From the NCBI GenBank assembly GCA_031414595.1, contig JANNVX010000039.1:1-46164 (forward strand): a DNA stretch of 46,164 bases. Direction: 5' to 3'. Every line of letters starts with the position of its first letter. Position 1 is the first letter of the stretch. Made by a program: the position numbers and the translations under genes. Positions 1 through 46,164 of the stretch are shown piece after piece. Below the pieces are notes generated by a model. That model was not told the origin of the DNA, did not search any database, and was given only the letters and a program-made list of their open reading frames with translations. Source of the DNA: Deinococcales bacterium. Lineage in GTDB: Bacteria > Deinococcota > Deinococci > Deinococcales > JAAFIG01.

Positions 1-104
1 GGGGTTCGCCCCTACAAAATACATTTTTATGCCCTTTTTGTAGGGACAGGCGACCATGCCCGTCAGGTGCGTGTTTATGGTCAAGACACCCCTGTGTCTG
101 TCCT
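1..104. repeat. GTAG-type REP-like doublet, truncated by the window edge; related to the element at 16558-16759
   Basis: Reverse complement of 1-15 is GTAGGGGCGAACCCC; GTAGGGACAG at 40; CCCCTGTGTCTGTCCTG at ~88-104 is identical to the copy at ~16687-16703. Confidence 0.6.
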
Positions 105-193
105 GTGCTAACGATAATTTTCCATTCTTTCGGAGGCTCTATTTTCAACTTGATTTCTCGAGCAATTCAAAACGATTTTGCTATACTCAAAGC

Positions 194-619
194 ATGAAAC
201 GCAAACCCTCGAGTCTGACCCCAGATGCTTTTTTAGAAGCGGTGCTGGATGCGGGTGGACTCGAGGATCGGGTTTTGGTGGCGCTAGAAGTTAAACCCAA
301 AGCCTTACACAATTTTCTCGAGAAAAACCCAGATGTACGCCAAGCAGCCTTATCCGAACTCGAGGAACGAGAATTTGACACCTCGGAAATGCACTTTGGT
401 TGGTTGCGCCTAAGTACAAAAGTAAGCCCTGAAAGCGAAGAAGATGCAAATTGGGCGCGGTACAAAGCACTGCTCGAGGAAGAACCACGGCTAGAAGCGC
501 TCGAGAGCTTAGAGAACGCAAAGATGAAAACCGAGAATTTGGTTTCTCAATTGCAAGCCGCTAAACGCGCTAAAATCGAGGCAAAGAAAGTACGCCAAGT
601 ACAAAATTGGGAAGATTGA
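194..619 (+). CDS. Hypothetical protein (141 aa), helical with a coiled-coil C-terminus
   Basis: Start moved to ATG 194 because TATACT (182-187) lies 6 nt upstream (leaderless layout); the upstream part of the track ORF overlaps the REP element. Confidence 0.7.
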   Translation: MKRKPSSLTPDAFLEAVLDAGGLEDRVLVALEVKPKALHNFLEKNPDVRQAALSELEEREFDTSEMHFGWLRLSTKVSPESEEDANWARYKALLEEEPRLEALESLENAKMKTENLVSQLQAAKRAKIEAKKVRQVQNWED

Positions 620-628
620 ATTTTTACC

Positions 629-2662
629 TTATCTTTTTCCCCTCGAGCGTTTCTGTGGTTTACCACCGGGCATATTGATGGTTTTAACTTCTTTGCCAGA
701 TAGCTTGGTCTCGAGTTGCCTGATTTGGTCGCGGAGTCGGGCTGCACCTTCAAAGTCCATCGCTTCGCTGGCTTGCCACATGTCTAGCTCTAAATCGGTG
801 ATGGCACTTAAGATGTCGTCTTTACTTAAGCTAATGTCAGTTGGCTCGAGTGGCGTTTCTGGGGCTTCTTCACCTCGTATGACCTTACGAATGCTTTTGC
901 TGATGGTCGTCGGGGTGATGTTGTGTTCAAGGTTATAGGCTTCTTGGATAGCTCTGCGCCGATTGGTTTCTGAAATGGCAAACTGCATGGCTGGAGTAAT
1001 ACTATCGCCGTACAAAATCACTTCGCCGCCAACATTGCGGGCAGCCCGTCCGATGGTTTGGATTAAACTGCGTTCGGAACGTAAAAATCCGGGTTTATCG
1101 GCATCGAGTATGGCAACTAAGCTGACTTCCGGCAAGTCCAGCCCTTCGCGCAATAAGTTAATCCCAACCAGCACATCAAAATGCCCAAGGCGTAAATCGC
1201 GGATAATCTCTTGGCGTTCCATCGTATCAATCTCGGAGTGCAAGTAGCGGGCTTTGACATTATGCGATAGTAAATACTCGGTTAGGTCTTCGGACATGCG
1301 TTTGGTCAGGGTCGTGACCAGCACCCGCTCATCTCGAGTCGCCCGAACTCGGATACGCCCAAGTAAATCTTCAACTTGCCCCAAAGTCGGACGAATCTCA
1401 ATTTGAGGGTCAACCAAACCCGTTGGACGTATCACTTGGTCAATAATCTGACTCGAGATGCTGCGTTCATACTCGCCGGGTGTGGCAGAAACATAAACCA
1501 CTTGTCCAACTTTTTCGTAGAACTCCTCGGTTTTTAACGGACGGTTATCCATGCAGCTTGGCAACCTAAACCCATAATCAGATAAAGTTTTTTTACGGGC
1601 ATAATCGCCTTTGTACATCCCGCCAATTTGAGAATGCGAAATGTGCGATTCGTCCAAAAAAGTAATAAAGTCGTCTGGAAAATAATCGAGCAAGGTATAC
1701 GGTTTTTCGCCCGGTTGCCGCCCATCTATGTGCCGGCTATAATTCTCGATGCCCGAACAATAGCCAAGTACCCGCATCATCTCGAGGTCATACAAAGTGC
1801 GTTCTTTAATTCGTTGTGCCTCGAGCAGCTTACCAACACTGTTAAAATACTCGAGTTGACTAGCAAGTTCGGCTTCGATTCCAGCGATTCCAGCATCTAT
1901 ATTGCCTTGCTCGGTCACATAATGCTTAGCGGGATAAATGACAGTGCTGCTGAGGTTTTGCAGGATTTCACCAGTCAATAAATTGACCACTTGAATCTGC
2001 TCGAGGTCATCACCCCAGAGTTGAAAGCGCATTGGGTGTTCGTCGTAACTACACCAGATTTCTAAAGTGTCGCCTTTGGCGCGAAAACGCCCCGGCAGCA
2101 GTTCAATGTCGTTGCGTTCATACTGAATCTGCACCAAGCGCTCTAAAATTGCGTCTCGAGCAATTGGTTTACCTTTCTCTAAATACAAATTCATGCGTTT
2201 GTACTCTTCGGGGTTGCCAAGTCCGTAAATACAGGAAACACTGGCAACCACAATCACATCTCGGCGGGTCAGTAAACTGCGGGTGGTGCTGTGGCGCAGT
2301 CGCTCAATTTCTTGATTGACCGCAGAATCTTTTTCGATAAATAAATCCTTACCCGGAACATAAGCCTCTGGTTGGTAATAATCGTAATAAGAAACAAAGA
2401 ATTCCACCGCGTTATTGGGGAAGAACTCACGGAATTCTCCAGCTAATTGGGCGGTTAGGATTTTATTAGGGGCAATAATTAAAGCTGGGCGCTGAAGTTC
2501 TTGGATTGTTTTCGCCACTGAAAAAGTTTTTCCTGTGCCAGTGGCTCCTAATAAAGTCTGAAACCGAAAACCACTTTCTAAACCATCTACCATCTGAGCA
2601 ATGGCTTTAGGCTGATCGCCTTTGGCGCTAAATTCGGATTCGAGCTTGAAACGTTGATCCAC
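629..2662 (-). CDS. uvrB: Excinuclease ABC subunit B
   Basis: Walker [19 protein letters not shown] beta-hairpin, [24 protein letters not shown]-terminal UVR domain; GGAGG RBS before the GTG. Confidence 0.98.
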
Positions 2663-2721
2663 TTTTAACCTCCACCTCGAGTCTCGAGGTTATTTTGTCT
2701 ATTCTCGAGGATAGAGGTGTT

Positions 2722-2738
2722 TTCTGTCAATAGCAGAA
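2722..2738. promoter_or_regulatory. RDRM (DdrO operator) overlapping the TTGACA -35 of uvrB
   Basis: TTCTGTCAATAGCAGAA = TTCTG-N7-CAGAA, 17 bp. The minus strand reads TTCTGCTATTGACAGAA and contains TTGACA. uvrB is an established RDR-regulon member in Deinococcus. Confidence 0.85.
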
Positions 2739-2781
2739 TGGGCTTAGGTGATACAAGCAGGCGTAGCGGCGATTGTCATTC

Positions 2782-7292: not shown

Positions 7293-8660
7293 TTAGCCTT
7301 TTTCGCCGCCAGCCGTGTTACCCGAAACAAAGACTTGTTGGAAGCTGTAGTACAAAAGCACAATCGGAATCGCACCAAGTACCGCCGCCGCCGCAAATGT
7401 GCCGTATTCGACACTGAATTGCCCTGTGGCAAATGACCGAAGTCCCACACCGACATTCCAGTTCTGAGCGCCCGTGACCAGCACATTGGCGGTTAAGAAT
7501 TCGGTGTATGTCCCCACAAACTGCATCAAAAAGATAAAAACCATCATTGGACCAGATAGCGGCAGCACAATTTTGGTAAACGCCGTCCAACGTGTGCAAC
7601 CGTCCACCAAAGCAGCTTCCTCGAGACTGGCTGGAAGGCTCTCGACGTACCCCTTGTAAATCCAAGTGCCAAAAGAAACTGCGCCGCCCGTATAAGCAAT
7701 CACCAATCCTGGTAGGCTTTCGGTTAAGCCAAGGCGGTAAATCAGTTCGTACATGGCGACCAAACCAAGTAAAGCTGGGAACATCTGAATAAAAATTAGG
7801 AACATCAAAAATTCAAAACGCCCTGGAAAACGCAGACGGGCTAATCCATAACCCGTGGTGGTACAAAGCAGCACGGTTAGAATTCCAGTTGCCCCAGACA
7901 CCAAAAAGGTATTGCGAATCCAAAGCAGAAACTTGCTCGAGTTGCTAAAACCCGTGAATTGGTCAATGGTCAAAGTAGCAAAGAAGGCAAAAACCCCAAG
8001 AATCGCAAGCCAAGTGCTAACCACTCGAGCGCGAGTGATGTTAGGGTCGGCAAGCCCGCCGCTAGTGCGTTGCACAATCGCCCAAATCACAGCAATACCC
8101 AGTACACCCAGCGCCGAAACACCCAAGAGCAACCATTGCCAAGAAAAGATATTGACCCCATCAAAGAGTTTGGCGTAATTGGCAAAACTCATCCCCTCGA
8201 GACTGGGAAGCACTCGAGACCGAATCAGCAGAGGTTCTTCGCTTGTCCCTAGGGTGGCTTGGGTCAAGCGGTTTAGTGGGTCAAACGAGGCGCTGATCAC
8301 ATAAAAAATCGGATAAAGCGAAAACAGAATCACAATCCAAAAGAACACATGGGTCAGTTGGTCATTTAAGACCGATAAGTAATTGACTTTGCCGTATTTA
8401 CGCTGCCTTTGCCCAATGACTTGACCAATATAACTGGTTAAGCAAACTAAACCGACAATTGCTATAAAACCAAATAAGGTGTTGAGTGCCGCGTTTTCTG
8501 GGTAGAGAATAGCAAAGCTCTTGCCTTTCATTCTCGAGTTTAAGTCCTGCCCTAAAAAGAATAAAGCAATCAGAACACCAGCAAGAATACTCACGTTTAG
8601 TACAATCCGCCATGTTGGGGTTTTTTGTTCATACTGCATTGGGGTGTTGGGGCTACTCAT
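7293..8660 (-). CDS. malG: Sugar ABC transporter permease, MalG type
   Basis: EAA motif LEEAALVDG, multiple TM helices, QMFP, C-terminal AGGEKG; ATGA overlap with the malF stop. Confidence 0.85.
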   Translation of the reverse strand: MSSPNTPMQYEQKTPTWRIVLNVSILAGVLIALFFLGQDLNSRMKGKSFAILYPENAALNTLFGFIAIVGLVCLTSYIGQVIGQRQRKYGKVNYLSVLNDQLTHVFFWIVILFSLYPIFYVISASFDPLNRLTQATLGTSEEPLLIRSRVLPSLEGMSFANYAKLFDGVNIFSWQWLLLGVSALGVLGIAVIWAIVQRTSGGLADPNITRARVVSTWLAILGVFAFFATLTIDQFTGFSNSSKFLLWIRNTFLVSGATGILTVLLCTTTGYGLARLRFPGRFEFLMFLIFIQMFPALLGLVAMYELIYRLGLTESLPGLVIAYTGGAVSFGTWIYKGYVESLPASLEEAALVDGCTRWTAFTKIVLPLSGPMMVFIFLMQFVGTYTEFLTANVLVTGAQNWNVGVGLRSFATGQFSVEYGTFAAAAVLGAIPIVLLYYSFQQVFVSGNTAGGEKG

Positions 8661-10066
8661 TTGCTCGCCTCCTTAAATACGCCAGCTGCACGGAAATTAA
8701 AGTATGAAATAATCACGGTCAGCACACCGACAATCACCGAAACTGCCCCAGCTAAACCGTAAGCCTGAGCGCCCGCCCCAGTAAAGGCGGTGTTAAAACC
8801 CCATGAAAGCAGAATATCGGTGGCTCGAGCCGTGGCTTCGCGTCCTTCTTCGGCAGGTCCGCCACCAGTTAAGAGGTAAATAATTCCAAAGTTATTGAAG
8901 TTATAAGCAAAAGTCGCCAACACAATCGGCGTAAATGCAGCTTGGAGCATTGGTAAGGTAATAAACTGAATTTGTTCGATTTTGGTCGCACCGTCCATCT
9001 CAGCAGCTTCGTAGAGTTCATCTGAAATAGCCGAGAGTGCGCCAAGGGTGGCGGTCATCATGTACGGAAAACCAAGCCAAAGATTGACCAACAGAATGGC
9101 TACTTTCGCCCAAAGTGGGTCGGTCAGCCACGGAATCGGCAGCCCACCGAATAAGCCAAGTAAACGGTTTAAGCCACCAAAGTTTTGGTTCAGTAACGCC
9201 ACCCAAAGTTGAATCGAAATCACACCCGGAACTGCCCAAGGTAGAATCAAAATCGAGCGGTAAAAATTACGAAACTTCAGGCGTTTGTTATTCAGTAAAA
9301 TACCAAGAAGTAGTCCAACAATGACGTTAATAATCGTGGTGGATAAAGCAAAAATAACTGTCCAAATCAGCACTGGATAAAGTTGCACACTGGCTTTAGA
9401 AAAAATATCTTGAAAATTACCCAGCCCAATGTTTGCCACTGGGTTAATTCGCCGCACTCGAGTAATGTCGGTTGGTAAGACACCTTGGTTTGGTGCGAGG
9501 GTGATGGTTTTGGCATCTACTTTCAGGACTTTGTACGTATCGCCCGGTTTACCTGTTTCGGCATCGGAGCGAAGCTCGATAGGTTCGTTTACACAGGCAG
9601 TTTGCCGACAAGCTAAAGTCTCGAGTTTTGATTCACCTGTTAATTCTAAGGTATCTGCGCCAATCACTTTAACCGAAATTTCGGTGGTGCTGTCCGGGCG
9701 GTCATTATTTTGCGAATTAAAATTGGTAAAGGCATATCCAAAAGTCATGATCAGTGGATAAACCGTAAAAGCCAAAATACAAATAATGGCTGGAATCATG
9801 TAGTACCAATTGATTAACCACGGGAAAATCCGTACTGCCACCAGCATTAAAGGAATAAGGGCAAGCACCACAAAAACCAGCAGTAACCACGGTTCGGCAC
9901 TTGGGATTGCTGCCACCACACCACTGGTCACAAGTAGACCAATCAGTAAACCCAAGGCACAAATGCCAAGCACCAAGCCAATTGCAAATGCCACACCGCC
10001 AGTTCCTTCTGGTGGTTTGTTCGAGCCAACCCCAAAAATATCTGGTTTTGCTGTCATCATTGCCAT
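8657..10066 (-). CDS. malF: Sugar ABC transporter permease, MalF type
   Basis: LILPWAVP, VNLWLGFPYMM, LYEAAEMDGA, FAYNFNNF, TDIL motifs. Confidence 0.88.
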   Translation of the reverse strand: MAMMTAKPDIFGVGSNKPPEGTGGVAFAIGLVLGICALGLLIGLLVTSGVVAAIPSAEPWLLLVFVVLALIPLMLVAVRIFPWLINWYYMIPAIICILAFTVYPLIMTFGYAFTNFNSQNNDRPDSTTEISVKVIGADTLELTGESKLETLACRQTACVNEPIELRSDAETGKPGDTYKVLKVDAKTITLAPNQGVLPTDITRVRRINPVANIGLGNFQDIFSKASVQLYPVLIWTVIFALSTTIINVIVGLLLGILLNNKRLKFRNFYRSILILPWAVPGVISIQLWVALLNQNFGGLNRLLGLFGGLPIPWLTDPLWAKVAILLVNLWLGFPYMMTATLGALSAISDELYEAAEMDGATKIEQIQFITLPMLQAAFTPIVLATFAYNFNNFGIIYLLTGGGPAEEGREATARATDILLSWGFNTAFTGAGAQAYGLAGAVSVIVGVLTVIISYFNFRAAGVFKEASK

Positions 10067-10125
10067 GTTTCTCTCCTCTTAAACTGGCGTGTACTCGAGA
10101 ACCGTTAAATAAGACCATTGAACGC

Positions 10126-10156
10126 AAAAACCCCGCCCTTTTCAAGAGCGGGGTTT
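10126..10156 (-). terminator. Stem-loop between malE and malF (terminator or mRNA stabiliser)
   Basis: AAAAACCCCGCCCTT-TTC-AAGAGCGGGGTTT; U-tract on the minus strand. Confidence 0.75.
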
Positions 10157-10216
10157 GGATTGTTAAGTCTCGAGCTTTCTCATATTTTAATTTCCGAAAC
10201 TCGAGTCCTAAAAAGA

Positions 10217-11455
10217 TTATTTCTTGTTAATTGCGGCTTTGATTTGGTCAACACCCTTGCCGAGCAAGCTGGCTGCGTCTGCATTTTGGGTCTTGATAAT
10301 CAGGTTCTGAGCGTCGCCCCAAGGTCCCCAGACTTGACCCATTTCTGGGATGTTTGGCATTGGGATGCCTTTGGCAATGGCTGCGCCGAATCCGGCTGCC
10401 ACTGGGTCTTTGCCGAGTTGACGAACTGCACTCTTAGAAATTGGCAAGCGTCCACCAATTTTGTTGAGGCTGATTTGGTTGGCATTGCTGACGAGAAATT
10501 TGGCAAATTCCGAGGTAACTGGTTTTTGTTTGCTGTAGGCGTTCATCACCAGTCCGCGCACACCGAGGAAAGGTTGGAAGTCTTGGGTTGCACCGGTTGG
10601 GCGTGGTGGCAAACCAATTCCGTAATCAATTTTGGCTTTTTTGATGTCTGCCATTTTCCAAGGTCCGTTGAGCCACATGGCTAAGTTGCCCTTGAGGAAC
10701 AAATCGGTTTGCAGACCATCGTCTTCTGCACCTTCTGGAATCAATTTGTGCTTAAAGCGCAAATCGGCAAGCAGTTGTGCGGCTTTAACAGCCCCAGCGT
10801 TGGCTAAACCAATGTCAGCAGTGTTGTAGCTGCCGTCTTTGTTCTTCCCAAAGACATAACCGCCGAAAGCACGGTAGAAGCCGTGTTGGTGGTATTGAAT
10901 ACCGATTGGGCTTAGGTAGCCAAATTGTTGTTTTTCGGCGTTGGTCAGGTTCTGAGCCACTTTGATGAACTCATCCCAAGTTTTTGGAATACCGCCGGGC
11001 AAGAGTTTTTTGTTGTAAATAATGGCAACTGCTTCGCCCCACATTGGAATACCGAAGGTACGACCTTTGTAGTTAAAGGCATCCAAGCTGCTTTCAGCAA
11101 CATCAGCTTTGAAAGCCACAGATAGGTACTTGTCCATTGGCTCGAGAACACCAGCGCTGGCAAATTGTCCAACTTGGTCGTGTGGAATGGTGGCAATCAG
11201 GTCTGGACCTTCGCCTTTAGGAGCGCTTTGAATAAACTTGTCGCGGTTTTCACCGAGCGGTACAGCCACAATCTCGAGTTTTGCGCCTTTGGCTTGTGGG
11301 GTTTTTTCAAAGGCATCGGCGGCTGCCGAGAACCATTTGAGTTCTTCGGTCGCAAAATCTGTCCAGATAACGAGTTTGCCTTGACCACTGACTGTTGATG
11401 CACCTGCGGCAAGCGCAAGGCTAAGTACGGCTACTGCTGCTGCTACTTTTTTCAT
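10217..11455 (-). CDS. malE: Maltose/maltodextrin-type ABC substrate-binding protein
   Basis: Start ATG 11455 (MKKVAAAV, GGAGG RBS); GEGPDL, NGPW, PFLGV, MPNIPEMGQVW motifs. Confidence 0.85.
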   Translation of the reverse strand: MKKVAAAVAVLSLALAAGASTVSGQGKLVIWTDFATEELKWFSAAADAFEKTPQAKGAKLEIVAVPLGENRDKFIQSAPKGEGPDLIATIPHDQVGQFASAGVLEPMDKYLSVAFKADVAESSLDAFNYKGRTFGIPMWGEAVAIIYNKKLLPGGIPKTWDEFIKVAQNLTNAEKQQFGYLSPIGIQYHQHGFYRAFGGYVFGKNKDGSYNTADIGLANAGAVKAAQLLADLRFKHKLIPEGAEDDGLQTDLFLKGNLAMWLNGPWKMADIKKAKIDYGIGLPPRPTGATQDFQPFLGVRGLVMNAYSKQKPVTSEFAKFLVSNANQISLNKIGGRLPISKSAVRQLGKDPVAAGFGAAIAKGIPMPNIPEMGQVWGPWGDAQNLIIKTQNADAASLLGKGVDQIKAAINKK

Positions 11456-11631
11456 CTTCACTTCCTCCGTGGGCGTGAACCAGTGTACTCGATTTGGTAG
11501 CGCTTCCATGACTGAAAGTACACAAAAACACATCTGATGCGAGAATCTACTGGCTGTTTGCCTAATAAAGATGCTAACACAAGATTTTAAGAAGTGGAAG
11601 AGTTTAATAGCGAATTTTATGAACAAAGTGT

Positions 11632-14600
11632 TTAGAACACCAATCGCAAGGTGACTATCTGAAAAGGTGTAAGGTACAATTTGAGACTTTGACCATCCAC
11701 CTCGAGTTCGGTTTGATTTTCCTCGAGCAGATGACAAATATAAGCAGTTTGAAGCGCAAAAGCTGTCTCCAAATCCACCCAGCCCCGAGAGCGGTTGCAT
11801 TCAAAAAAGCGCACAATAAAGCCATGACTATCGTCGGCTTGCTTAATCGTCTCGAGGATGATGTTGTTGTTGATGCTCGAGACCAAAGACTTGAGTGGTT
11901 TGGCTGCTTGGCTCGAGCCGTGACGAACCAAAATCGGGTCATTCAGTTCATAGGCTGCCCCTGACATTTCCCATTCAGTGGGGTAAGTGCTTGGCACAAG
12001 GGCATAGCAAAAACGCTGTTCCCCTTGGTCGGCTTCAGGGTCTGGCGAAGTTGGCGAACGCAACAACGACAATCTCATCACATTGCCTTCTATATCATGC
12101 CCATACTTGGAATCGTTGACCAGCCCCACGCCATAACCACTTTCTGAAAGCATCACCCATTTTTGAGCGCAAGTTTCAAACCGCGCCCAATCCCAAGAGG
12201 TGTTGCGGTGGGTCGGGCGCTCGACACTGCCCCACTGAATTTCAAAGGTGGCTTTGGGCGACAACACATCGACTGGAAAAGCCACTTTTAAGAGCGTGTG
12301 CCGTTCACGCCAATCCATCACGGTTTCAAAATGCAAGGTTTTGCTCCAACGGGTCAAAGAGATGCGTTGGGTATAACGGCTTCCGAGAATCTGGCGTTCA
12401 ATCTCGAGCATTACCCGCAAAGCCCCAGTCTCGAGAATGCGAATGGTACTGGCTGGCTGTGCTAAAAACATCTTATCGTCATAAAAAATATCAATGTCCC
12501 ACGCATCCCACATTAAAGGACGGTCTTCAAAGGCTTGGAATTGGTTTGCCACAGCCCCATGCGGTAACACTTCGCGCTTTGCCTCTTTATCAAAAATCCG
12601 CATAATGTCGCCAGAGTCGTTCAGTTCAACCCGCAATAAATCGTTCTCAAGCAGATTTTTCTCGATTCGTAACGAGCCGTATGGCGTGTCCGAAACCTCA
12701 TCCGAGAACTGCAAGGCTCGAGCGCTGTAGGGCAGTAGAGCAGACTCGCAAGCAATCAACGTGCCATGCTCGAGTTCTTGGGTGTGAATGTGCTGCCCAA
12801 AGCTCTTGCCATTTGGTAATTTGCCATCCCAGAATGCCAAGCTGCCATGTAAAAACCCAGTAGGATTGACCAGAACCACATCGCCGCCGACTTGGGACTT
12901 GACCACCTCGAGTGCCGATTCGAGAACATTAGACCCCAAGCGCTTAATTTCTTGGTACTGCTCGAGTGATTCTTTGTAAACTGCGCCTATGCTGCTGCCC
13001 GGAATGATGTCGTGAAACTGATTTAAGCACAGCAACCGCCAAGCCTGCTCAAGAATGTCGTGAGGGTACAAAAAACTTGGCTCGAGCAAACTGGCATAGG
13101 TCGCCAGAAATTCGGCATCGTGCAGTAAAAATTCACACCTTCGGTTAGCGAGTTTATTGCGTGCCTGACTGGTGTATGTGCCTCGGTGAATCTCGAGGTA
13201 AAGTTCGGCATTCCAAGTCGGTAATTTGTCACCGCTTTCAGACTCGAGTTTTCTAAAAAAATCAATCACCTTGCCTTGGCGCACTTTTGGCACAGCCGGA
13301 AAGGAGCGCAGCACTTGGGCATTCTCGAGCATTTCGCGGGTTGGTCCACCGCCACCATCGCCGTAACCGTAACTCATCAGCATGGTTTTTTGGACGGCTT
13401 TGTGTTTCAGTTTTGCCCATGAACCCAATGCCCCAAAAGCGTTCAGTTGGGCGTTGTAGGTTGCATAATTTTTCATATCGGGTGTGGTTGGTTCACCACT
13501 CCAAGGGGTATCGGGCGTGGTGCTAAAATGGGTCAAGACCTTTGTGCCGTCCAAGCCCTGCCACCAAAACGAATCAAACGGCAATTGATTGACCTGATTC
13601 CAACCGATTTTGATTGTAAAAAAATACTCGAGACCGGCTTGTTTGATTAACTGCGGTAAATTCCAAGCGTAGCCAAAAACATCTGGCAGCCACAGCACAG
13701 GCGATTCTGTGCCAGCGCCAAAATGTTTGGCAAAAAACTTGCGCCCGAGTTTCAGTTGCCGCGCCAAGGATTCGCCGCCCGAGATGTTGCAATCGGCTTC
13801 GACCCACATCCTACCGATAATTTCCCAGCGCCCTTCTTGCACTTTTTCTTTGATTGCTTTGAATAGTGCGGGGTCATCCTCGAGCGCGTACTGGTAAAGT
13901 TGGGGCTGACTTTGGGTAAATTTATAATCAGGAAACTGCTCCATCAAGCGCAGCACATTCCAAAAAGTGCGCCGTAATTTCTGGCGCGTCTGCCCAAGTG
14001 TCCACAACCAAGCCACATCAATATGGGCATGACCAGCGGCAATCACTTCTAGCTCGAGCGGTGCGCCACAAGCTGCCACCGCCGTTTTGAGTGTTTTGAG
14101 GGCATTTGGCACACTTTGATAGAAATCATCCTCAAACGGCTCTCGAGTCTCTAGTAGCAAAAAAGCCGTATCAAGGGCGTTATAGAGTAAATTTTTAACA
14201 GGGTTGATTTCCTCCAATAAATTCGCGGTTTGCAGTGCAGTCCGTGCCAGTGCCACAAAATTTCTTGTGGCTTGGTCAATTCGCACCAGTGCATACTCGC
14301 CCATAAAAATCTGTCTGCCAGATTCGCCACCCATTGCCCCAAGTGTGCCAGTCCAACCGTGCAGCACTAGCCGATGCGCTGCCCCAGAAGTCAGTTCTCG
14401 GGTCAGCATAACTTCTTGGTGATGCCTGTCGGTGGTGGCAAATGGTTTGCTATCCACATAAACCAGCGCTTCAGCATGACTGAATTCGCCAGCCTCACTT
14501 AGTGGCAAAAAAAGCGCGATTGGTGCGCTCGAGCCAAAGTGCTTTGGCACGGCAAACACACCACGCAGTACAAAATTGATGTCTTGCCCACCCCAATAAG

Positions 14601-29769: not shown

Positions 29770-29827
29770 AGTGTTGGCTATCACTCAAAGAAAATATTAA
29801 AATTGCTTTATAGTCACTTCTCGAGAA

Positions 29828-30235: not shown

Positions 30236-30543
30236 GATGGTCTGCCTCCTTTGTTCCATTTGTCATAGTCTTTGTGGTTCAGCACGTAAAGTATAAACAC
30301 AGCACGAAATTCAAAATCTATTCGGGTAATCACACGGTATTTGTTGCCGCCAATATCAAAAATAAAAACCAGTGTTCCATCTTTGGCTTTTGCAGTGTCC
30401 ACCGCAGGAAAAAAGGCTTTGAGTTGGGCAAAATTTTCTGGCTCGAGTTTGCAAAGTAAATTGTACCAACCGCGTAAGACAGGTTCGGCTTCTGGCTGAT
30501 GTTCGCAAAACGCTCGTATGGTGCGGTAAGCGATAACATTCAC
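30232..30543 (-). CDS. higB: HigB-type mRNA interferase toxin
   Basis: MNVIAYRTIR, IFDIGGNKYRVI, LNHKDYDK; promoter TTGCAA-17-TATACT ends 6 nt before GTG 30543. Confidence 0.9.
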   Translation of the reverse strand: MNVIAYRTIRAFCEHQPEAEPVLRGWYNLLCKLEPENFAQLKAFFPAVDTAKAKDGTLVFIFDIGGNKYRVITRIDFEFRAVFILYVLNHKDYDKWNKGGRPS

Positions 30544-30649
30544 ATCTCGAGTATAGGTCATTTTGGACTGTATTGCAAGTTCTGTGAAACGACTGAGGTT
30601 GGGACAGCAAAAAGCCTGTGCAAGACTGCACAGGCTCGAGAATATAGAT

Positions 30650-32125
30650 TTAATTCGCACCGAGTTTGATTTTACTAAGCATTCCGTACTGACTACCGGC
30701 GGTGCTGTCTGGAACGAGCCAGCCACCAATCACGAGCCGACCATCGGTTGATGTACCGCCAATCAGAGCCGATAACGCCGTGGTTTTGAAGGTGTTATTG
30801 CCAAAATTATAGATTCGCCGATTCGATGCCACTGGGTTACTAATACTGGTGTCGGGGTTAAAGGTCGTGTCGGCAGCCCCATTTAACAAGTACCGAAAGG
30901 CAAAGACCTGAGATGCACCGCCAGTGTTTTCTTCTGCTCCAATCACAATGATTTTATCATCCGACTGTACCAAGACTTTTTTGGCGCGTAAGGCTTGGGC
31001 AAAAGCACTGGCAGCAATCACTGTTCCACCACTGCCAAAAGTTGTATCGAGCGTCCCATCAGAATTTAAGCGAATCATGGCAAGGACGGTGGCTGTGGTG
31101 GTGGCTGTTCCAACCACAATAATTTTTTGGTTTTGCAGTGCCACACTGCTGGCAGCGTCACCAGAACTACCAGGAATGCTTTGTATGACATGCCCGACCG
31201 TGTTAAAACTGGTGTCTCGAGCGCCAGAACTGGTAAAACGCATGATTAAAAAAGAACCTGTTGTGCCGTGTTTACCGACCACAATGATATTGCCACTTGC
31301 ATCTAGCATCACGCTCGAGGCTTCGTTGTCGCTGTTTGTGCCGTCCACATCGTCTATGCGGATACCTGTACCGTTAAAACTGGTATCGAGTGCGCCAGTG
31401 GTGGTGTAACGCATCACAAAAACATTTTTATCGCCAGTTGTACCGTTTCTGACGTAACCAACAGCCACAATTTGATTATTGGGTTGTACCACAAGGTCAG
31501 TCATGACGTGTTCTGAACCTGCGGCGCTATGAATTGTCGTATTGACGGTTTGGTTGCTCGAGAAGGTAGTGTCGTTGCTGATGTTTGAACCGACTACACT
31601 GCGTCCCATAATCAACTGAGTCCCAGTGGCTGTGGTGATATGACCACCGCGAACAATACGGTTTAGCGAGTCAACCCCAACACTGGTGTAATAGGTGTTG
31701 GTGGCAGATGTTCCGTTGCTAAAAACAGCCCGAATATGGTCTCCGTTTGGGTAATAAAGACCAAGCCAACCCCCTGTGCTGCTGGGCATAACTTGTCCAA
31801 CACTGGCAATTCGACCATCAGAAAACTGGGCTATATCTTCGATACTGCTTGTTCCACCCGGGCGGATGACCCGAAACCCACCAGATGCAAAACACGGATC
31901 CATCCTGCCGACCACACTGGTAGGTGCAATACTTTCTAAGAAGGCTTCTGGGGCGGCGGCACTGCCAGCAATCCGAACCTGACAAGCATTGGCGTAGTCG
32001 CCTAGTGCATGAAGTGCATAATCGGAGGCGGTGTTCTGTGCCGAAGAGTAAATCGTGGTTACTTCTTCGTTGCTGTTACGTCTGGTTTCGATGTCGGTGC
32101 TGGCTTTTTCGTCTAAACTGCCAGC
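30650..32125 (-). pseudogene. 5'-truncated delta-60 lipoprotein gene, copy C
   Basis: The frame stays open upstream of the track start and matches copy B back to GSLDEKAST (~32122), then loses homology and hits a stop with no start codon. About 260 N-terminal aa, including the lipobox, are missing. Ends in LGAN like copy B. Confidence 0.8.
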
Positions 32126-32201
32126 GTAACGAAATTCAACAAAATCCAGAACAGCACGAAGATTTGTATTTTAATGCGCGAGAAAAGTACCAAAAAGTAA
32201 A

Positions 32202-32222
32202 TCTCGAGTAGTTTACTCGAGA
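32202..32222 (-). terminator. CTCGAG-pair hairpin terminating the peptide genes
   Basis: TCTCGAGTA-GTT-TACTCGAGA, followed on the minus strand by TTTACTTTTT. Confidence 0.6.
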
Positions 32223-32249
32223 CTACATGATATTTACAGGTAATTACCT

Positions 32250-32387
32250 TTAGCGGCTTTCATTTACAGTTATAACTGCCTCGCCATGTTCATCTAATAG
32301 CTCGACCAGAATATCTTTAGCTTGAGAAACTCCACTAAACGCAAATACGCTAATAATGAGGAAAACAGCAATCAACTTTTTTAACAT
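32250..32387 (-). CDS. 45-aa secreted peptide MLKKLIAVFLIISVFAFSGVSQA|KDILVELLDEHGEAVITVNESR
   Basis: AAGGAG RBS, TGcTATACT extended -10 (32431-32439), Sec signal ending SQA. Confidence 0.85.
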   Translation of the reverse strand: MLKKLIAVFLIISVFAFSGVSQAKDILVELLDEHGEAVITVNESR

Positions 32388-32541
32388 AACTACTCCTTTG
32401 TTCCTAATGTGTCGCAAAGCAGAATAAGATAGTATAGCAGGTAAAACAATTGGATTCATTGTGCGTACTGTGATTAAAACGAGGGCTAAAAGTCTTAATA
32501 TATGCTCTTACTTCACTTTAGTGAAATAAGAGCATGGTTAA

Positions 32542-32685
32542 TTATTCACCATGCTCATCTAAAAGCTCAACTAGAATATCGGTGCCGCAATTGGATGATG
32601 TATCTTCGGTATCTATAGCCAGAGAAAATCCACTAAATGTGAATGCTCCAATGGCAAGGAAAACAGCAATTAACTTTTTTAACAT
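32542..32685 (-). CDS. 47-aa secreted peptide MLKKLIAVFLAIGAFTFSGFSLA|IDTEDTSSNCGTDILVELLDEHGE (not in the ORF track)
   Basis: Hand translation; AAGGAG RBS, TGgTAAACT extended -10 (32724-32732); start region duplicated with the 32387 gene. Confidence 0.82.
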   Translation of the reverse strand: MLKKLIAVFLAIGAFTFSGFSLAIDTEDTSSNCGTDILVELLDEHGE

Positions 32686-32841
32686 AACTACTCCTTTATT
32701 TCTACGGCATCCTAGAGTCAATTAGTTTACCAGATAAAACAAGAAAAATCTAAAAACAGAAAAAAAAGCCGTTCTGAACCATATGAAATAAGAATTAATT
32801 AGTATGTAAACTTTAATTGCTCGGCAAATCACAGCCAGATT

Positions 32842-35800
32842 TTGGCGTTCCTAACGATGCAGCAAAACCCTAATTTGCCGATGCCCCGAGTGCGTTTGGC
32901 TCGAGCCATCTGGACAGACTGCACCGACGAACAAGGACGCAAACGCCTGACCAATAGCCTGTACCGGCTGCGCCAAGAACACCCAGAATTCGAGGAATGT
33001 ATTGTGGCTGATGCCACCACTTTGACCCTTCAACCGATTTGGACAGACACCAACCAATTTATGCGCTTAATTCATAGCCAAAAAGCCCAAGATTGGTTTA
33101 CGGCACTCGAGCATTACCAAGGTGATTTACTCGAAGACCAAGACATCCCTTGGTTAGAAATATGGCGTGTAGAACTACACCAAACGATGCTGCAAGGGTT
33201 ACGCCAAGCCATAGCACAAGCTGACTCGAGCCGAGGCATTGTCTTATCGCAACGCCTGATTCAACTCGAGCCTTGGAACGAAGCGGCACATACCCACTTA
33301 ATTCGGTTGTATGCCAAGTTAGGACAACGACCAGAAGCGATTGCGGTATTTGAAAAACTTGAACAGACCCTCACCCAAGAATTCTCGAGTCAACCACACC
33401 CAGAAACACGGGCATTTATTGCTGATTTACAACGCCAACTCGAGCAACCACACAACAAACCAAACCAAGCCTTGGTTGGACGCGACCAAGAATGGCGTGT
33501 ACTGACCAATGCCTTAAATGCGCTGCGGGTCGAACAGGGCGGTGTGATTATACTCGAAGGAGAAGCTGGACAAGGCAAAACCCGTTTACTGCTCGAATTA
33601 CAATCCCTTGCCAAATGGCACCAAATCCCAACTTTAGCTGGCATGACTTTTGGTGCAAAACTGCCTTATGCCCCACTCGAACAAGCCCTACAAAGTGCCA
33701 CTGTTCTACTCGAGCAGAGCAGTACCTTAATTCAAAAGAATCTCGAGCCGCTCCTAAAAACCAGTGTAGAGATTGAATCTTCGCCACAAGTCATCAGTGC
33801 GACTTTAGAACGTTGGATACGCCATCTTGAACAACCCACGCTATGGTTACTCGACGACTTACACTGGGCTGGCGATTTATTCTGGACAGTCCTAAAAATG
33901 TTGACCCGAATGGCACAACAACGTCCGGTCTTGCTGGTTCTAGCGGCTCGTTCCGAAGAACTGCTTGGCAATCCAAAAGCCTTCGAGACCCTAACCGAAA
34001 TTCGTCAAACCCCACAAGTGCAACATTATCGGCTTGGAGGACTAAGCCTAGAAGCCTGTGCTGTTTTAGCTCGAGGACTCGGTAAAACCATCAATTCAAT
34101 CGAACTCGAGCAACTGCACCGCGTCAGCGCTGGCAACCCCTTGGTTTTTGGAGAATTGGTACTCGGGCAACCCGCCGAACAACACCTCGAGAATGCTTTT
34201 CAGGGCAGATTCGCAAAACTGGATCAAAAACTTCAAAATGCCCTCGAAGCCGCTTCGGTACTCGGCAAACAATTTGATTTACAAGTTTGGACAGCCATGC
34301 TTGATACCCCCGCCCCGATAGCCCAACTATTAGAAACACGCTTTATCCTCGAGTCACCGACTTTGGCTTTTCAACACGACTTAACACGGGTTTTTGTGTA
34401 CGAACAAATGAGTCTTGAGACACGGCAAAAATGGCACGAACGCGCTTTTGAAGTCTGCAAAAATTTTCAAACCCGAGCCATTTTGCTTGCCCACCACGCC
34501 CAAGAAGCCAATTTGTTAAGCCAAAGTGTGACTTATTACCGCCGAGCCGCCGAAGAAGCCCTAGGATTTTGTGCCTACCAAGATGCCCAAAATTACATCC
34601 AGCAAGCAACGATAAATAATCAATCCCTTCAAGCTAATGTACTCGAGGCACTACATTTGCAACTGATGCAGATGCGAATTTCATTTATTCAAGAGCCGGG
34701 GAATCAATCGGTGTTGGACTTAGAAACTTTGGAAACTCAGACCCGCCAATATCAAGACAAAGACCTAATGTATCACACCTTCGTTCTTAAATTGGGAATT
34801 CTAGCGACTCAAGGAAAAAGCCAAGCAACTTTACAAACCGCTGAGTCACTATGGTTCTGGACTCGAGAAATAAGAGACTCTGTACTAGAAGTCCGTGCAT
34901 TAACGATTAGTTCAGTCACCATCGCTCGGTCTTTTCTCGAGTCAGATAAAGCCCTTCTGTATGCCCAAAAAGCCCACGAGTTATGTCAAGTACACGAAAT
35001 TCCTGCCAGAGAACAATTTCGTACACTGATTGCCCTGACTAATTCGTATATCCGTGCTTCCAATTTTGAATCGGCGTGGCAAACACTTGCCGAAGTCGAA
35101 CAGATATTTCATGACAACCCATCACTGGTTATCCATGCTGTACAGCTTTTTAACATTAAAGGCGCATTAGCTCTTTATGGTGAACATTTTGAATTAGCAG
35201 TAAACGTTTTTCAAAAGCAACTTGACGATTGTTACACCCTAGGTGATGGTCGGCAAATCAATACCACCTTGGGCAATTTAGCCAGTTCGTTAATTAGACT
35301 AGGACGTTTTGAAGAAGCGCTTATTTGGGCAGAGGAACGCGCCGAACGAGCGCCAAAAGCAAAGCACTTACTGAGTGAAAGTCAAGTTGCCTATTATTTT
35401 ACCAATCTCGCCGAAGTTTTACTTTGTTTAGGACGAATTGACGAAGCCAATTCTTTACTCGACCCAATAAAATCATGGGCAATTGCAGAAGGTGCTTCTT
35501 TTTATGCCACAAAAACCAGAGAGGTTTTAGCCCTCATTTTACGGGCTAAAAAACAATTTGTGGCAGCCTTAGAAATTTTGTCGAATACCGAACAAGATTT
35601 AACGTTTCAATCTGAACTGGCATGTTTAGCGGGTTTGCAAGAAAAAGCCAAACCACTTCTTGGTCTGGCTTTGACAGCTACTTCGCCACTCGAGAATAAC
35701 CACTCGGCAATGTGCTACCACTACACAAAGTACCTGATTTATCAAAATCCAACCGTCCTTGAATTGGCTCGTTTTTCACTGCTCAGATTCGCTTGTCAAA

Positions 35801-36177
35801 TCGAAACCCTCGAGAATCGGCGGGTGATGCTTAAAAACGAGTATTACGCCAAAGCCGTAGAAGCCGCTTGGCAACAACAAGCCCTCGAGACAAGCGTTGT
35901 AGAACTCCCTGCTTTAACTGGCGAAGGCACAATTACAATCACTTGGACACTGAGTAGTGGCGCTTCGGACAAAGCCATTCTCGAGCAGCAAGACAAAGTG
36001 GCACTTCGTAATCACCGCTTAAAACGCCTGATGCTTGAAGCCCAAGCCCAAGGCGCAAAAGCCTTGCAGCGTCACCTTGCTACTGCCCTAGGGGTGGCAG
36101 TACGCACCATCGAAACCGATTTTTCTCAATTTAAGACTACAGCACAGGAAAAATCTCTGAACTCGAGTTCAGATTAA
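32842..36177 (+). CDS. Large regulator 2, paralogue of 26064-29495, lacking the first ~20 aa (possibly impaired)
   Basis: Same architecture (GEAGQGKTRL, LLDDLHWA, C-terminal HTH). Homology starts at NHSQI (~32827), with an in-frame stop at ~32800 and no RLHLLG strand. Confidence 0.8.
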   Translation: MAFLTMQQNPNLPMPRVRLARAIWTDCTDEQGRKRLTNSLYRLRQEHPEFEECIVADATTLTLQPIWTDTNQFMRLIHSQKAQDWFTALEHYQGDLLEDQDIPWLEIWRVELHQTMLQGLRQAIAQADSSRGIVLSQRLIQLEPWNEAAHTHLIRLYAKLGQRPEAIAVFEKLEQTLTQEFSSQPHPETRAFIADLQRQLEQPHNKPNQALVGRDQEWRVLTNALNALRVEQGGVIILEGEAGQGKTRLLLELQSLAKWHQIPTLAGMTFGAKLPYAPLEQALQSATVLLEQSSTLIQKNLEPLLKTSVEIESSPQVISATLERWIRHLEQPTLWLLDDLHWAGDLFWTVLKMLTRMAQQRPVLLVLAARSEELLGNPKAFETLTEIRQTPQVQHYRLGGLSLEACAVLARGLGKTINSIELEQLHRVSAGNPLVFGELVLGQPAEQHLENAFQGRFAKLDQKLQNALEAASVLGKQFDLQVWTAMLDTPAPIAQLLETRFILESPTLAFQHDLTRVFVYEQMSLETRQKWHERAFEVCKNFQTRAILLAHHAQEANLLSQSVTYYRRAAEEALGFCAYQDAQNYIQQATINNQSLQANVLEALHLQLMQMRISFIQEPGNQSVLDLETLETQTRQYQDKDLMYHTFVLKLGILATQGKSQATLQTAESLWFWTREIRDSVLEVRALTISSVTIARSFLESDKALLYAQKAHELCQVHEIPAREQFRTLIALTNSYIRASNFESAWQTLAEVEQIFHDNPSLVIHAVQLFNIKGALALYGEHFELAVNVFQKQLDDCYTLGDGRQINTTLGNLASSLIRLGRFEEALIWAEERAERAPKAKHLLSESQVAYYFTNLAEVLLCLGRIDEANSLLDPIKSWAIAEGASFYATKTREVLALILRAKKQFVAALEILSNTEQDLTFQSELACLAGLQEKAKPLLGLALTATSPLENNHSAMCYHYTKYLIYQNPTVLELARFSLLRFACQIETLENRRVMLKNEYYAKAVEAAWQQQALETSVVELPALTGEGTITITWTLSSGASDKAILEQQDKVALRNHRLKRLMLEAQAQGAKALQRHLATALGVAVRTIETDFSQFKTTAQEKSLNSSSD

Positions 36178-36257: not shown

Positions 36258-36650
36258 ATGAATTTTTTGCGATCTCGAGGCTGGGTTTTACTTGTACTGT
36301 TGCCAATAGCGGCGTTTGTCGCGTGGTTGCTACTGCCCAAAGCATTACATATGAACATTGTCGAAGCCAAAACCGAACACTTTTTTCGGATCGGTCAGCA
36401 TGATATTCGGATTGTCCTCAGTCCCTTGGCAAAAGGTGATAACGGCACGGCTGAAGTTCAGATTTACAATGGTACAATCCTGCTCGAGTCTCGAGAATCG
36501 CTGTTTAACTACGACACGCTGCAAAATAATCCTCCTGCCTTTGTGCGTTATGCGTGGCTGGATGGGGATTTAATACCAGATTTACTGCTCGAGTTGCAAT
36601 CTGAATCCTTGTACCTCAGCAGCCAAAGCGGAAAGGTCGTGGCTTTATGA
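36258..36650 (+). CDS. Hypothetical membrane-anchored protein
   Basis: N-terminal TM helix; TATTCT 5 nt before ATG 36258; ATGA overlap with the next gene. Confidence 0.65.
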   Translation: MNFLRSRGWVLLVLLPIAAFVAWLLLPKALHMNIVEAKTEHFFRIGQHDIRIVLSPLAKGDNGTAEVQIYNGTILLESRESLFNYDTLQNNPPAFVRYAWLDGDLIPDLLLELQSESLYLSSQSGKVVAL

Positions 36651-44576: not shown

Positions 44577-44590
44577 AGCTAGATTTTTGA

Positions 44591-44992
44591 TTATGCGTGT
44601 GGTTGCACCACATAGACTTCATCGCCAAATGGGTCTTTGAAGGTTAAATCTCGTCCCCAAGGCATTTCTCCTATCGGGCGAACGATGCTTAAGTTGTTCT
44701 GCTCGAGTTTGGTAACCAAGCCATCAAGGTCATCTGAACCCAATACCAGTAAAGCCTGATGACCAATTTGGGCAAGGGCGATTTCTTGGGCTTGACCCTC
44801 GAGCCAATTGTGTGGGTTATACAACACCACTTCAAAATTCTTTTGGTTTGCAGTGCAGACAGTAAGCCATCGTTTTTTTTCGTCCATCATTGTGTCTGTA
44901 TGAACCTCAAAGCCTAGAATATCGTGGTAAAATGCTAAGGCTTCGTCTTCGTTGCGGACATAGCGGGTGATGTGGGTAACACTTGTAATCAT
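44591..44992 (-). CDS. VOC/glyoxalase family protein
   Basis: VTHITRYV...ALAFYHDILGF, RWLTV, MPWG...FKDPFG; AAGGAG RBS. Confidence 0.9.
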   Translation of the reverse strand: MITSVTHITRYVRNEDEALAFYHDILGFEVHTDTMMDEKKRWLTVCTANQKNFEVVLYNPHNWLEGQAQEIALAQIGHQALLVLGSDDLDGLVTKLEQNNLSIVRPIGEMPWGRDLTFKDPFGDEVYVVQPHA

Positions 44993-45131
44993 AGTTGCTC
45001 CTTTTCTTGATTATTATAAATCAATAAACTTAAATTTGTCAAAAACAGAAAAAAATTCTCCTATGAAGCCTAGTGGTGTTTTGTCGGCCCACCATTTTGA
45101 GGGCTTTACATTCAGTAAAATCTATCAGGTC

Positions 45132-45179
45132 TTGACAATACGACTGGTTAGGGCTACTATTTCGGTGTTTGGCGAAATA
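45132..45179 (+). promoter_or_regulatory. Sigma-A promoter with a palindromic ArsR-type operator
   Basis: TTGACA-17 nt-TACTAT; inverted repeat TATTTCG-N8-CGAAATA (45158-45179) overlapping the -10. Confidence 0.8.
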
Positions 45180-45195
45180 CCAAAATAAGGAGACC

Positions 45196-45483
45196 ATGAA
45201 TGAAATCTTCAAAGCACTGGCTGACCCAACGAGGCGCGAAATCCTACGTGTGCTGCGAGAACGTGAACGCAGTGCGGGTGAAATCTCGGAACTTTTCCCA
45301 TTGGCAAAAAGTACCTTGTCGGGACACTTTAATGTCCTCAAAGCGGCTGACTTAATCGAACAAGATAGACGAGGCACAACCATCACCTACCGACTCAACA
45401 CCAGTATTTTTGAAGAGGTTGTTACCCATTTATTTGACTTTTTTGGCACTCAACAACCAATTGCCCAAAGGAAGGAATCATGA
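45196..45483 (+). CDS. ArsR/SdpR-family autorepressor
   Basis: MNEIFKALADPTRREIL...AKSTLSGHFNVLKAADLI...YRLNTSIFEE; AAGGAG RBS. Confidence 0.9.
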   Translation: MNEIFKALADPTRREILRVLRERERSAGEISELFPLAKSTLSGHFNVLKAADLIEQDRRGTTITYRLNTSIFEEVVTHLFDFFGTQQPIAQRKES

Positions 45484-46046
45484 AAAGTGTAATCGTAAAA
45501 AGCATCAATCTAGCTGGAATCATTTGGGGGTTCGCTTATGGGTTACTGCTGTACTTACCGCTTCCTGAACGAGTCCCAGTCCATTTTGGAATAGATGGTA
45601 CTCCAGACCGGTATGGCACAAAACTCGAGGCAGGATTTGGCATTTTGCTGCTTCCGGTACTGCTGCTTGGTTTGTACACTTTGTTTTGGTGGATGACAAA
45701 AAATGAAACTCGAGTGGCACAGAAAAAAATCCTCGAGACCACCCAAATAGGCATGACTTTTTTGCTGCTGTTGGTACAGTTTTCGATTATACAAGCCATG
45801 CAGCAAGGGCAATTTAAGGATATTCGTTTAATCGCACTCGGCATTGGTGTGTTGTTGATGCTGCTTGGTAATCTTATGCCCAAAATTGTGCCAAATGCTC
45901 TTATTGGTGTACGAATTCCTTGGACTTTTGCTTCTGATCGTGCTTGGTATGCAGCCAATCGACTTGGGGCTTGGATACTGGTGGGTATTGGCGGGGGGTT
46001 GATTTTGTGCAGTCTGTTTTTACCAATAGTCTGGAACGTTTTTTAA
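45480..46046 (+). CDS. SdpI-family immunity membrane protein (DUF1648 + SdpI)
   Basis: LPERVPVHFGIDGTPDRYG, GNLMPKIVPNALIGVRIPWT...W..ANRLG. Confidence 0.88.
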   Translation: MKSVIVKSINLAGIIWGFAYGLLLYLPLPERVPVHFGIDGTPDRYGTKLEAGFGILLLPVLLLGLYTLFWWMTKNETRVAQKKILETTQIGMTFLLLLVQFSIIQAMQQGQFKDIRLIALGIGVLLMLLGNLMPKIVPNALIGVRIPWTFASDRAWYAANRLGAWILVGIGGGLILCSLFLPIVWNVF

Positions 46047-46164
46047 ATTTAAGAAATTAAAAGTGGAAGCCCTACTGTAAGCTGTGAGTGTCTAAACCAA
46101 CGCTCCAAAAAGGCTTCCATGACTATCTTAAACCAAATTCTGACCTTAGCGGGTATTCGCAAAA

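Follow-up and report, generated by a model that had tools for sequence, protein, structure and literature searches.

The stretch of DNA analysed here raises a simple question: why does a single six-base palindrome, CTCGAG, recur in it about once every 196 bases? The stretch (hereafter the window) is contig C39, 46,164 bases long, of a Deinococcales genome (G000; 4,488,778 bases in 120 contigs, 94% complete), from an uncultured relative of Deinococcus and Thermus. The assembly yielded no 16S, and the UvrB relatives listed for it, at 52-61%, come from many phyla; in this analysis, the Deinococcales label finds support in an SlpA_C S-layer match, a domain linked to Deinococcus-Thermus. A preliminary description of the window had likened the word to HIP1 (GCGATCGC), the highly iterated palindrome (HIP) of cyanobacteria. 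We find that CTCGAG is a genuine HIP, common to the whole family to which the source genome belongs, and that the pressure acts on the DNA word as a whole. We tentatively attribute this pressure to a protein that would read the word in DNA exchange or self-recognition.

Abundance of CTCGAG in coding and non-coding DNA

The window (1-46164) carries 235 copies of CTCGAG, i.e. 5.09 per kb, in every reading frame of the coding DNA as well as between genes. The density is steady throughout, as the preliminary description had proposed, and its count by eye of about 57 copies in the first 10.3 kb proved accurate, since exactly 57 start at or before base 10,200. In 100 dinucleotide-preserving shuffles of the window, we obtained 5.73±2.55 copies, with a maximum of 16, and 235 was reached in 0 of 100. 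The whole genome holds 23,235 copies, one per 193 bases, where a zero-order model predicts 971 (a 24-fold excess). No other hexamer of the genome is as common: CTCGAG is threefold over the next, which is made up of its own overlaps, and it is found on all 120 contigs (2.3-8.6 per kb).

Such a count could arise from codon usage, dipeptides or base composition alone. Consistent with this explanation, 59% of the coding sites lie in the CTC-GAG frame, and CTC and GAG, as common codons, account for a large part of the raw count in sister families rich in GC. We therefore shuffled synonymous codons within each gene, a procedure that keeps every protein (hence every dipeptide) and the codon counts of each gene, using 3,610 crude calls of open reading frames (ORFs) of at least 120 aa as genes. 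For the coding sequence of the genome, 1,939±29 CTCGAG were expected and 19,976 observed (10.3-fold), and for that of the window 19.3 and 206 (10.7-fold); in the window, the word ranked first of 529 testable hexamers. The preliminary description had named the loss of the excess under a codon- and dipeptide-preserving null as the result that would speak against it; the excess stays, and codon usage is indeed insufficient to account for it. Outside the motif, both codons are rare, CTC making up 7.9% of Leu codons and GAG 20% of Glu codons. Moreover, density is the same in coding DNA (5.15 per kb) and in the remainder (5.32 per kb). The sites fall in all three frames, with 11,878, 3,905 and 4,193 copies in the genome and 127, 37 and 42 in the ORFs of the window, where 29 others lie outside ORFs of at least 120 aa, again in line with the preliminary description. 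A by-product of composition is thus a negligible prospect. A maximal-order Markov expectation gave an observed/expected ratio (O/E) of only 1.16, which we set aside as an artefact because the sub-words on which it is built are dominated by CTCGAG itself.

The word leaves its mark on proteins. CTC-GAG encodes 60% of the 19,766 Leu-Glu pairs, against about 1.6% expected from context-free codon use. Of all dipeptides, Leu-Glu exceeds its expectation the most (O/E 2.22); the reverse pair, Glu-Leu, stands at 0.98. By arithmetic on the dipeptide counts, the surplus reaches about 10,900 pairs, i.e. up to 1.7% of residues. With context-free codon use taken as the reference, CTCGAG is shifted 50-fold with respect to CTCGAA and 32-fold with respect to CTTGAG; in a mutation-selection-drift model, these shifts point to a moderate pressure per site, with S ~3.4-3.9.

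We then considered whether the sites could be copies of a small mobile repeat (repetitive extragenic palindrome, REP, or miniature inverted-repeat transposable element, MITE) or an artefact of assembly or linkers. Short multi-copy repeats do exist in this genome (window 1-141 and 16556-16763). However, genome-wide, no longer consensus was found around CTCGAG from -10 to +10: base frequencies are 0.17-0.30 at every position, near background, with C slightly low at -1 and -2 and G slightly low at +1 and +2. The word thus differs from REP and MITE elements by its lack of extended conserved flanks. Furthermore, the sites occupy orthologous codon positions across 15 genomes and recur in 19 assemblies. 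We consider this origin to have practically no chance of being correct. The pressure targets the entire hexamer and is exerted alike whatever the reading frame, and also in promoters, terminators and CRISPR repeats.

Conservation of the sites and distribution across the order

The turnover of the sites was followed in three congeners, whose alignments with the window span 18-30 kb with an identity of 89-93%. They share 108 of 122, 143 of 161 and 89 of 105 of the CTCGAG of the source genome, whereas background hexamers are identical in 70, 60 and 57% of cases, respectively. Turnover goes both ways, with 14, 18 and 16 sites specific to the source genome and 8, 16 and 11 specific to the relative. 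With the amino acids held equal, CTC-GAG is unchanged in 56 of 61, 78 of 84 and 52 of 59 cases, compared with 71-74% for other Leu-Glu pairs and 65-77% for all codon pairs. The fourfold site of Leu CTN is kept in 89-95% of cases inside the motif vs. 65-74% outside, and synonymous change within CTC-GAG is about 3-5 times slower than elsewhere. Polymorphic sites with one, two or three differences number 44, 25 and 14 (three non-independent relatives pooled), against about 65, 24 and 8% in the background. A multi-base 'writing' of CTCGAG was considered and set aside, the excess over background being weak.

Between genera, we compared the uvrB gene (629-2662, minus strand; UvrB Pfam domains; 10 CTCGAG sites) and three genes of an ATP-binding cassette (ABC) transporter, two permeases and one solute-binding protein according to Pfam (7293-11800, minus strand; 13 sites). 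At 64-70% identity, and with the small numbers of 9-21 comparable sites per genome, 25-67% of the CTCGAG coincide in position vs. 10-16% of background hexamers. The UvrB proteins of 15 family genomes were further compared with 80 outgroup UvrBs. At 710-715, CTCGAG is present in all 13 family genomes that align there (2 of 15 do not), while in the outgroup proteins the residue after L is R (29), K (21) or E (8). At 2000-2005, CTCGAG stands in place of I/V-E/D, and the sites at 1781-1786 and 1820-1825 lie on a universally conserved L-E. As read from these alignments, the uvrB sites both exploit existing Leu-Glu pairs and create new ones. Existing CTCGAG are protected even at synonymous positions, and new sites cost amino-acid replacements.

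The distribution of the word was assessed by counting it over the whole genomes of 40 relatives, mostly metagenome-assembled genomes that are 57-94% complete and mutually non-independent. In the family of the source genome (f1), all 18 genomes sampled, from five genera, carry 4.3-6.8 CTCGAG per kb. In the other families of the order, these values are 0.6-2.0 (f2), 1.7-2.9 (f4), 0.9-2.3 (f5) and 0.03-0.27 (f3). For eight outgroup genomes, a sample of 100 kb each was submitted to the same codon null and hexamers were ranked by (O-E)/sqrt(E). CTCGAG ranks 4 and 5 of ~1,700-2,300 hexamers in f2 (G019 and G031; O/E 1.7-2.1), 3 and 1 of ~1,700-2,300 in f4 (G021 and G025; O/E 1.8-1.9), and 236 and 185 of ~1,850 in f5 (G026 and G034; O/E 1.3-1.4). 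Out of frame, CTCGAG exceeds its expectation about 2-9-fold in f2 and f4. In the Deinococcus-like f3 (G040 and G020), the word is instead depleted (O/E 0.07, 1 site vs. ~15 per 100 kb), i.e. about 14-fold below the codon null, the opposite of f1 inside one order. This depletion would fit an XhoI-type restriction system in f3. The trait thus reaches its extreme in a single family; two others show it faintly but genuinely, a fourth is borderline and the fifth shows the opposite. The pressure is old (it predates the five genera of f1) and still at work. The mild, top-ranked excess in sister families, which include complete and probably cultured genomes, offers an experimental entry point.

Candidate agents acting on the word

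The preliminary description had suggested a ratchet driven by a methyltransferase and repair. This explanation follows the model of Elhai for HIP1: a CTCGAG-specific and probably orphan methyltransferase would mark the sites, and a methyl-directed repair bias or an epigenetic function would preserve and create them. Cyanobacterial HIPs are each reported to co-occur with a cognate methylase (PMC4390886), CTCGAG carries 5-methylcytosine in Halorubrum (PMC8112702), and its methylation is reported in Fimbriimonadia and a group of hosts and phages (bioRxiv 10.64898/2026.06.24.734251). The source genome is itself rich in methylases, with 10 matches to N6_Mtase, 9 to N6_N4_Mtase, 5 to C5 and 1 to D12. 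Two of these enzymes are TaqI-like gamma enzymes with a TaqI_C domain (C89 and C4), a specificity domain that we take to be linked to TCGA-core sites, which made them the best a-priori candidates. As agents they were rejected, being sporadic (3 of 18 and 2 of 18 family genomes). Another candidate, the 489-aa N6 methylase on C32, adjoins an HsdS gene and is therefore type I.

No methylase class or ortholog common to the whole of f1 was found. C5 enzymes (PF00145, threshold 1e-20) were not found in G010 (91% complete) or G002, N6_N4 enzymes (PF01555, E<=1e-20) in the single-contig G013 or in G012, G014 and G002, and N6_Mtase (PF02384, E<=1e-10) in G002 or G012. D12 methylases matched in five of five genomes tested, and were rejected as a shared agent since the enzymes of G013, G010 and G006 are non-orthologous (24% identity or no match). 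Vsr was not found in the source genome. Neither was a nuclease of the XhoI family, a weak test because its control gave no match in any of 14 genomes. As no XhoI-type nuclease, Vsr or family-wide methyltransferase was found, the proposed methylase ratchet is unsupported.

The one-off neighbours of CTCGAG also bear on this point. Their nine classes total 11,992 positions, against 23,235 for the word itself, and each is at least ~19-fold disfavoured relative to composition. CTCGAG is thus favoured over all nine and not over one mismatch. O/E is 1.07-1.23 for transitions and 0.17-0.70 for transversions, a pattern suggestive of mutations passing into and out of an abundant word, and not of the loss of one repair substrate. 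No C-to-T hot spot was seen, transition neighbours differing by less than 1.4x. The excess of CCWGG in enterobacteria, associated with Dcm and Vsr, also concerns a methylase-type palindrome above expectation, but it is small and at the expense of one T:G-derived neighbour, while here no Vsr was found and all nine neighbour classes are disfavoured. Nevertheless, the largest class among the variants is that with an intact TCGA core (5,263 vs. 3,181 and 3,548), and a methyl-directed repair bias on the whole site would also protect all six positions. In addition, non-orthologous enzymes of equal specificity could serve different genomes, and the assemblies are incomplete. On balance, we regard maintenance through methylation as unlikely, while still a serious contender.

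As a separate observation on restriction and modification, the source genome shows an extreme avoidance of other palindromes (TGCGCA 2 copies, GGCGCC 3, CGATCG 3, GACGTC 3, GAGCTC 6 and GTGCAC 6), and all six-base palindromes containing GGCC are also strongly avoided. Together with the ~25 DNA methyltransferase genes, this indicates a heavy restriction-modification pressure on this genome. In G010 (C6:30000-32500), a NotI-like restriction endonuclease gene adjoins a D12-class methyltransferase.

The preliminary description had also suggested a nucleoid-organising site, and the placement of the sites raises the possibility that CTCGAG is bound by an abundant architectural (nucleoid) protein or another DNA-binding protein, with selection acting on the genome-wide density. 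Xu et al. proposed such a protein-binding role for HIP1, whose site conservation (PMC5861425) resembles that of CTCGAG. Compartments that differ widely in constraint have nearly the same density: it is flat over gene starts and stops, and intergenic classes hold 4.6-6.8 sites per kb, the extremes being divergent genes (4.6) and convergent genes (6.8, vs. 5.2). Spacing is near-geometric (coefficient of variation 0.99) with a frame-driven ripple of three bases. Spacings below 30 bases are depleted (1,748 vs. 3,356 expected); those of 8-20 are depleted, whereas CTCGAG-N-CTCGAG doublets (spacing 7), at 101 genome-wide, come close to the ~121 predicted at random. This short-range repulsion fits a bound dimer that makes a near neighbour redundant. 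The variance/mean ratio is 0.83-0.89 in bins of 500 bases (under-dispersed) and 1.4-1.5 at 5 kb (over-dispersed). However, no candidate protein was found, spacing is otherwise near-geometric, and no convincing periodicity appeared between 4 and 100 kb in the six largest contigs (112-305 kb), where permutation p values of 0.03-0.46 do not survive correction and power is low. Islands of 4-15 kb poor in the word are tolerated, and the motif-rich CRISPR spacers and phage described below would not be explained by an architectural role alone. This role therefore seems to us improbable.

The CTCGAG-poor part of the genome comprises 16 regions totalling ~95 kb, with at most 1.8 sites per kb and mostly a GC content of 0.35-0.43; the islands of 4-15 kb have ~1.3 sites per kb. 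Among the 12 regions examined, several contain genes of kinds that usually vary between strains or species, namely a polysaccharide cluster, RHS/SUKH with SIR2, a transposase, PIN, pilins and GH25, and several others gave no Pfam match. The GH25 region on C75 was considered as a prophage and rejected, being a 4-kb island. An S-layer gene of the SlpA type (SlpA_C match; C86:23001-27000; GC 0.54) looks native and is yet poor in CTCGAG (1.5 per kb); here, the pressure for the motif seems to be overridden by other constraints. We infer that DNA gains CTCGAG the longer it resides in the lineage, although a strong constraint in the opposite direction may keep its content low. The pressure would be strong enough to rewrite up to ~1.7% of residues, yet too weak to have raised the motif content of recent islands and of the S-layer gene.

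The source genome has three CRISPR arrays, whose two related 35-base repeat variants each hold CTCGAG, at different positions. The 59 spacers of the source genome (2,178 bases, GC 0.49) hold 9 copies at varying positions, where ~0.44 is expected by composition, i.e. a near-host density (Poisson p ~1e-9, on small numbers). The array at C11:14152-16123 has 27 spacers and 8 CTCGAG, and the arrays at C82:70753-71699 and C101:44-1415 together have 32 spacers and 1 CTCGAG. Protospacers were not matched in 50,697 phage records, in the 18 family genomes, or in three exact IMG/VR scans covering 3 of the 59 spacers; the spacers had no match in the rest of the host assembly, and a plasmid search gave one match at chance level (E 4e-3). 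Some spacers of the C82 and C101 arrays carry sites avoided by the host (CTGCAG, GTTAAC and AAGCTT).

We also scanned IMG/VR for three close copies of CTCGAG and obtained at least 128 loci, mostly GC-rich. Among the four dense loci of lower GC that were examined, one is a tailed-phage contig (G041; 72,862 bases, GC 0.593) with genes for a DNA polymerase with its processivity factor, primase, helicases, SSB, a UvsX-like recombinase and SbcCD, as well as for portal, large terminase, tape measure and two small methylases. No other hexamer of this contig is as common as CTCGAG, which has 186 evenly spread copies (2.55 per kb); the coding sequence of the contig holds 160 vs. 64±8 expected. Seventeen palindromic hexamers, GAGCTC included, are absent from it. 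Its palindrome profile correlates at 0.10 with that of the source genome and at 0.33 with that of G019, and no host was assigned. Spacers and a phage that are rich in the motif tip the balance towards DNA exchange or a self-tag, the latter also suggested in the preliminary description, and they suggest that CTCGAG matters for DNA traffic between cells.

A protective marker comparable to Chi is one way to read these data. A host nuclease would spare CTCGAG-dense DNA, so that both the host and long-term mobile DNA would accumulate the word. The motif-rich spacers, which derive from invaders, and the motif-rich phage with its own replisome are consistent with this, and a palindrome works in either orientation. 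Known Chi sites, however, show far smaller excesses than CTCGAG here, and motif-poor islands persist. In addition, the cognate helicase-nuclease of the RecBCD or AddAB type was not found in the source genome, where the only match is a PDDEXK_1 protein of 256 aa. Large AddAB/RecB-type PDDEXK_1 proteins (E<=1e-5) were not found in G003, G005, G007, G009, G010, G013 or G014, and 8 of the 18 family genomes gave no match; in the other four families, such proteins are mostly present. This marker is very unlikely to be the explanation.

We rank DNA exchange or self-recognition first among the agents, followed by maintenance linked to methylation, an architectural binding site and a Chi-like marker. 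Under this leading reading, which in our judgement falls somewhat short of an even chance, CTCGAG is a HIP-like word held by a moderate DNA-level pressure on the whole hexamer. A putative protein would read CTCGAG and favour DNA that bears it. The most likely setting would be the uptake or recombination of DNA from kin, with CTCGAG spreading as a molecular drive in the manner of uptake sequences, and the agent would be neither a Vsr-type repair ratchet nor a conserved orphan methylase. DNA exchange is placed first because it fits the cost to the proteome, the scarcity of the motif in young islands, its abundance in the spacers and the present view of HIP1, which two reports link to transformation (PMC13756078; bioRxiv 10.1101/2024.09.10.611283). 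A fuller version, in which CTCGAG is a lineage-wide 'self' word, the putative protein governs which DNA is taken up, recombined or spared, and resident phages and other mobile DNA copy the word, is more doubtful.

Several points weigh against this attribution to DNA exchange. Known uptake sequences are 9-12 bases long, non-palindromic and present about once per kb, Thermus takes up DNA without sequence preference, and a six-base word is a poor discriminator. No reader protein for CTCGAG was found in this analysis. ComEC is present in 17 of 18 family genomes and in 40 of 41 overall, and competence genes do not discriminate because ComEC is equally present in the CTCGAG-depleted sister family. 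The conserved positions are equally compatible with selection for whatever function and with a repair bias acting on the whole site. An uptake bias does not explain a motif-rich phage that has its own replisome and an unassigned host, and 8 of the 9 spacer sites come from one array, the other two having 1 in 32 spacers. Finally, the genes were called crudely.

CTCGAG among known iterated words

The parallel with HIP1 drawn in the preliminary description extends to hyper-abundance, to presence in all frames and in intergenic DNA, to clade-wide spread and to conservation of position. HIP1 and the alternate HIPs are likewise short GC-rich palindromes, hyper-abundant in coding and non-coding DNA across a clade (PMC5861425, PMC4390886 and PMC6604393); HIP1 also shares site conservation beyond background and occurrence within CRISPR repeats (in Synechocystis). 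HIP1 differs in being an octamer of cyanobacteria, while CTCGAG is a hexamer, in another phylum, and is denser (one per 193 bases). For CTCGAG, no clade-wide cognate methylase was found, and Leu-Glu is inflated 2.2-fold. HIP1 is also distributed periodically at 10-90 kb, according to Xu et al. 2018 (PMC5861425), while for CTCGAG no periodicity was detected at 4-100 kb, on contigs of up to 305 kb and with low power.

The uptake signal sequences of Pasteurellaceae (USS) and the DNA uptake sequences of Neisseriaceae (DUS) are also genome-wide words found in genes and in spacers between them. They too reshape proteins at tolerant positions, are rare in recently acquired islands, and belong to naturally transformable groups; ComEC is present here. 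They differ from CTCGAG, which is palindromic, has six bases and is about five times denser. DNA uptake sequences often form inverted pairs in terminators, whereas CTCGAG is only mildly enriched between convergent genes (6.8 vs. 5.2 per kb). CTCGAG is not known to be tied to an uptake bias or a receptor. CTCGAG is also the very target of the XhoI/PaeR7I restriction-modification systems; restriction targets are avoided, as in f3, while the word is enriched here.

Our literature search returned no publication linking CTCGAG with highly iterated palindromes or with over-representation in Thermus, and its matches for iterated palindromes together with Deinococc concern cyanobacteria only. To our knowledge, all HIPs reported so far come from cyanobacteria, where thirty years of work have not ended the debate on what they do. 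CTCGAG would be an independent case in another phylum, with another word and a stronger effect (~10,900 extra Leu-Glu). No conserved methylase was found here, which takes away the principal clue followed for HIP1 and suggests that the HIP phenomenon is more general. If the 'self' word reading were true, it would represent a second, independent and much denser invention of the principle of HIPs and uptake sequences. A weak form would then already exist in cultivable Thermus-like and Truepera-like relatives, making a puzzle of three decades testable by genetics.

Within the window, individual sites illustrate these arrangements. Doublets of the form CTCGAG-N-CTCGAG occur at 2676-2688 (spacing 7) and at 36483-36495. 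Two CTCGAG at 29730-29825 lie between two ORFs, one ending at 29495 and the other at 29828, and two more at 32203-32221 lie in an ORF-free stretch (31916-32841). The short multi-copy repeats at 1-141 and 16556-16763 recur with 81-100% identity at contig ends and elsewhere, in the source genome and in its relative G001, and look like MITE-like elements that break the assembly. At 29828-30729 (minus strand), a HigB-like toxin gene overlaps an HTH_3 antitoxin-like gene, forming a toxin-antitoxin pair. Three DUF5122 beta-propeller proteins (21072-25746 and 30650-31915, minus strand) are interleaved with two large BTAD-AAA-TPR regulators (25938-29495 and 32842-36177, plus strand), and the whole set may be a paralogous regulated module.

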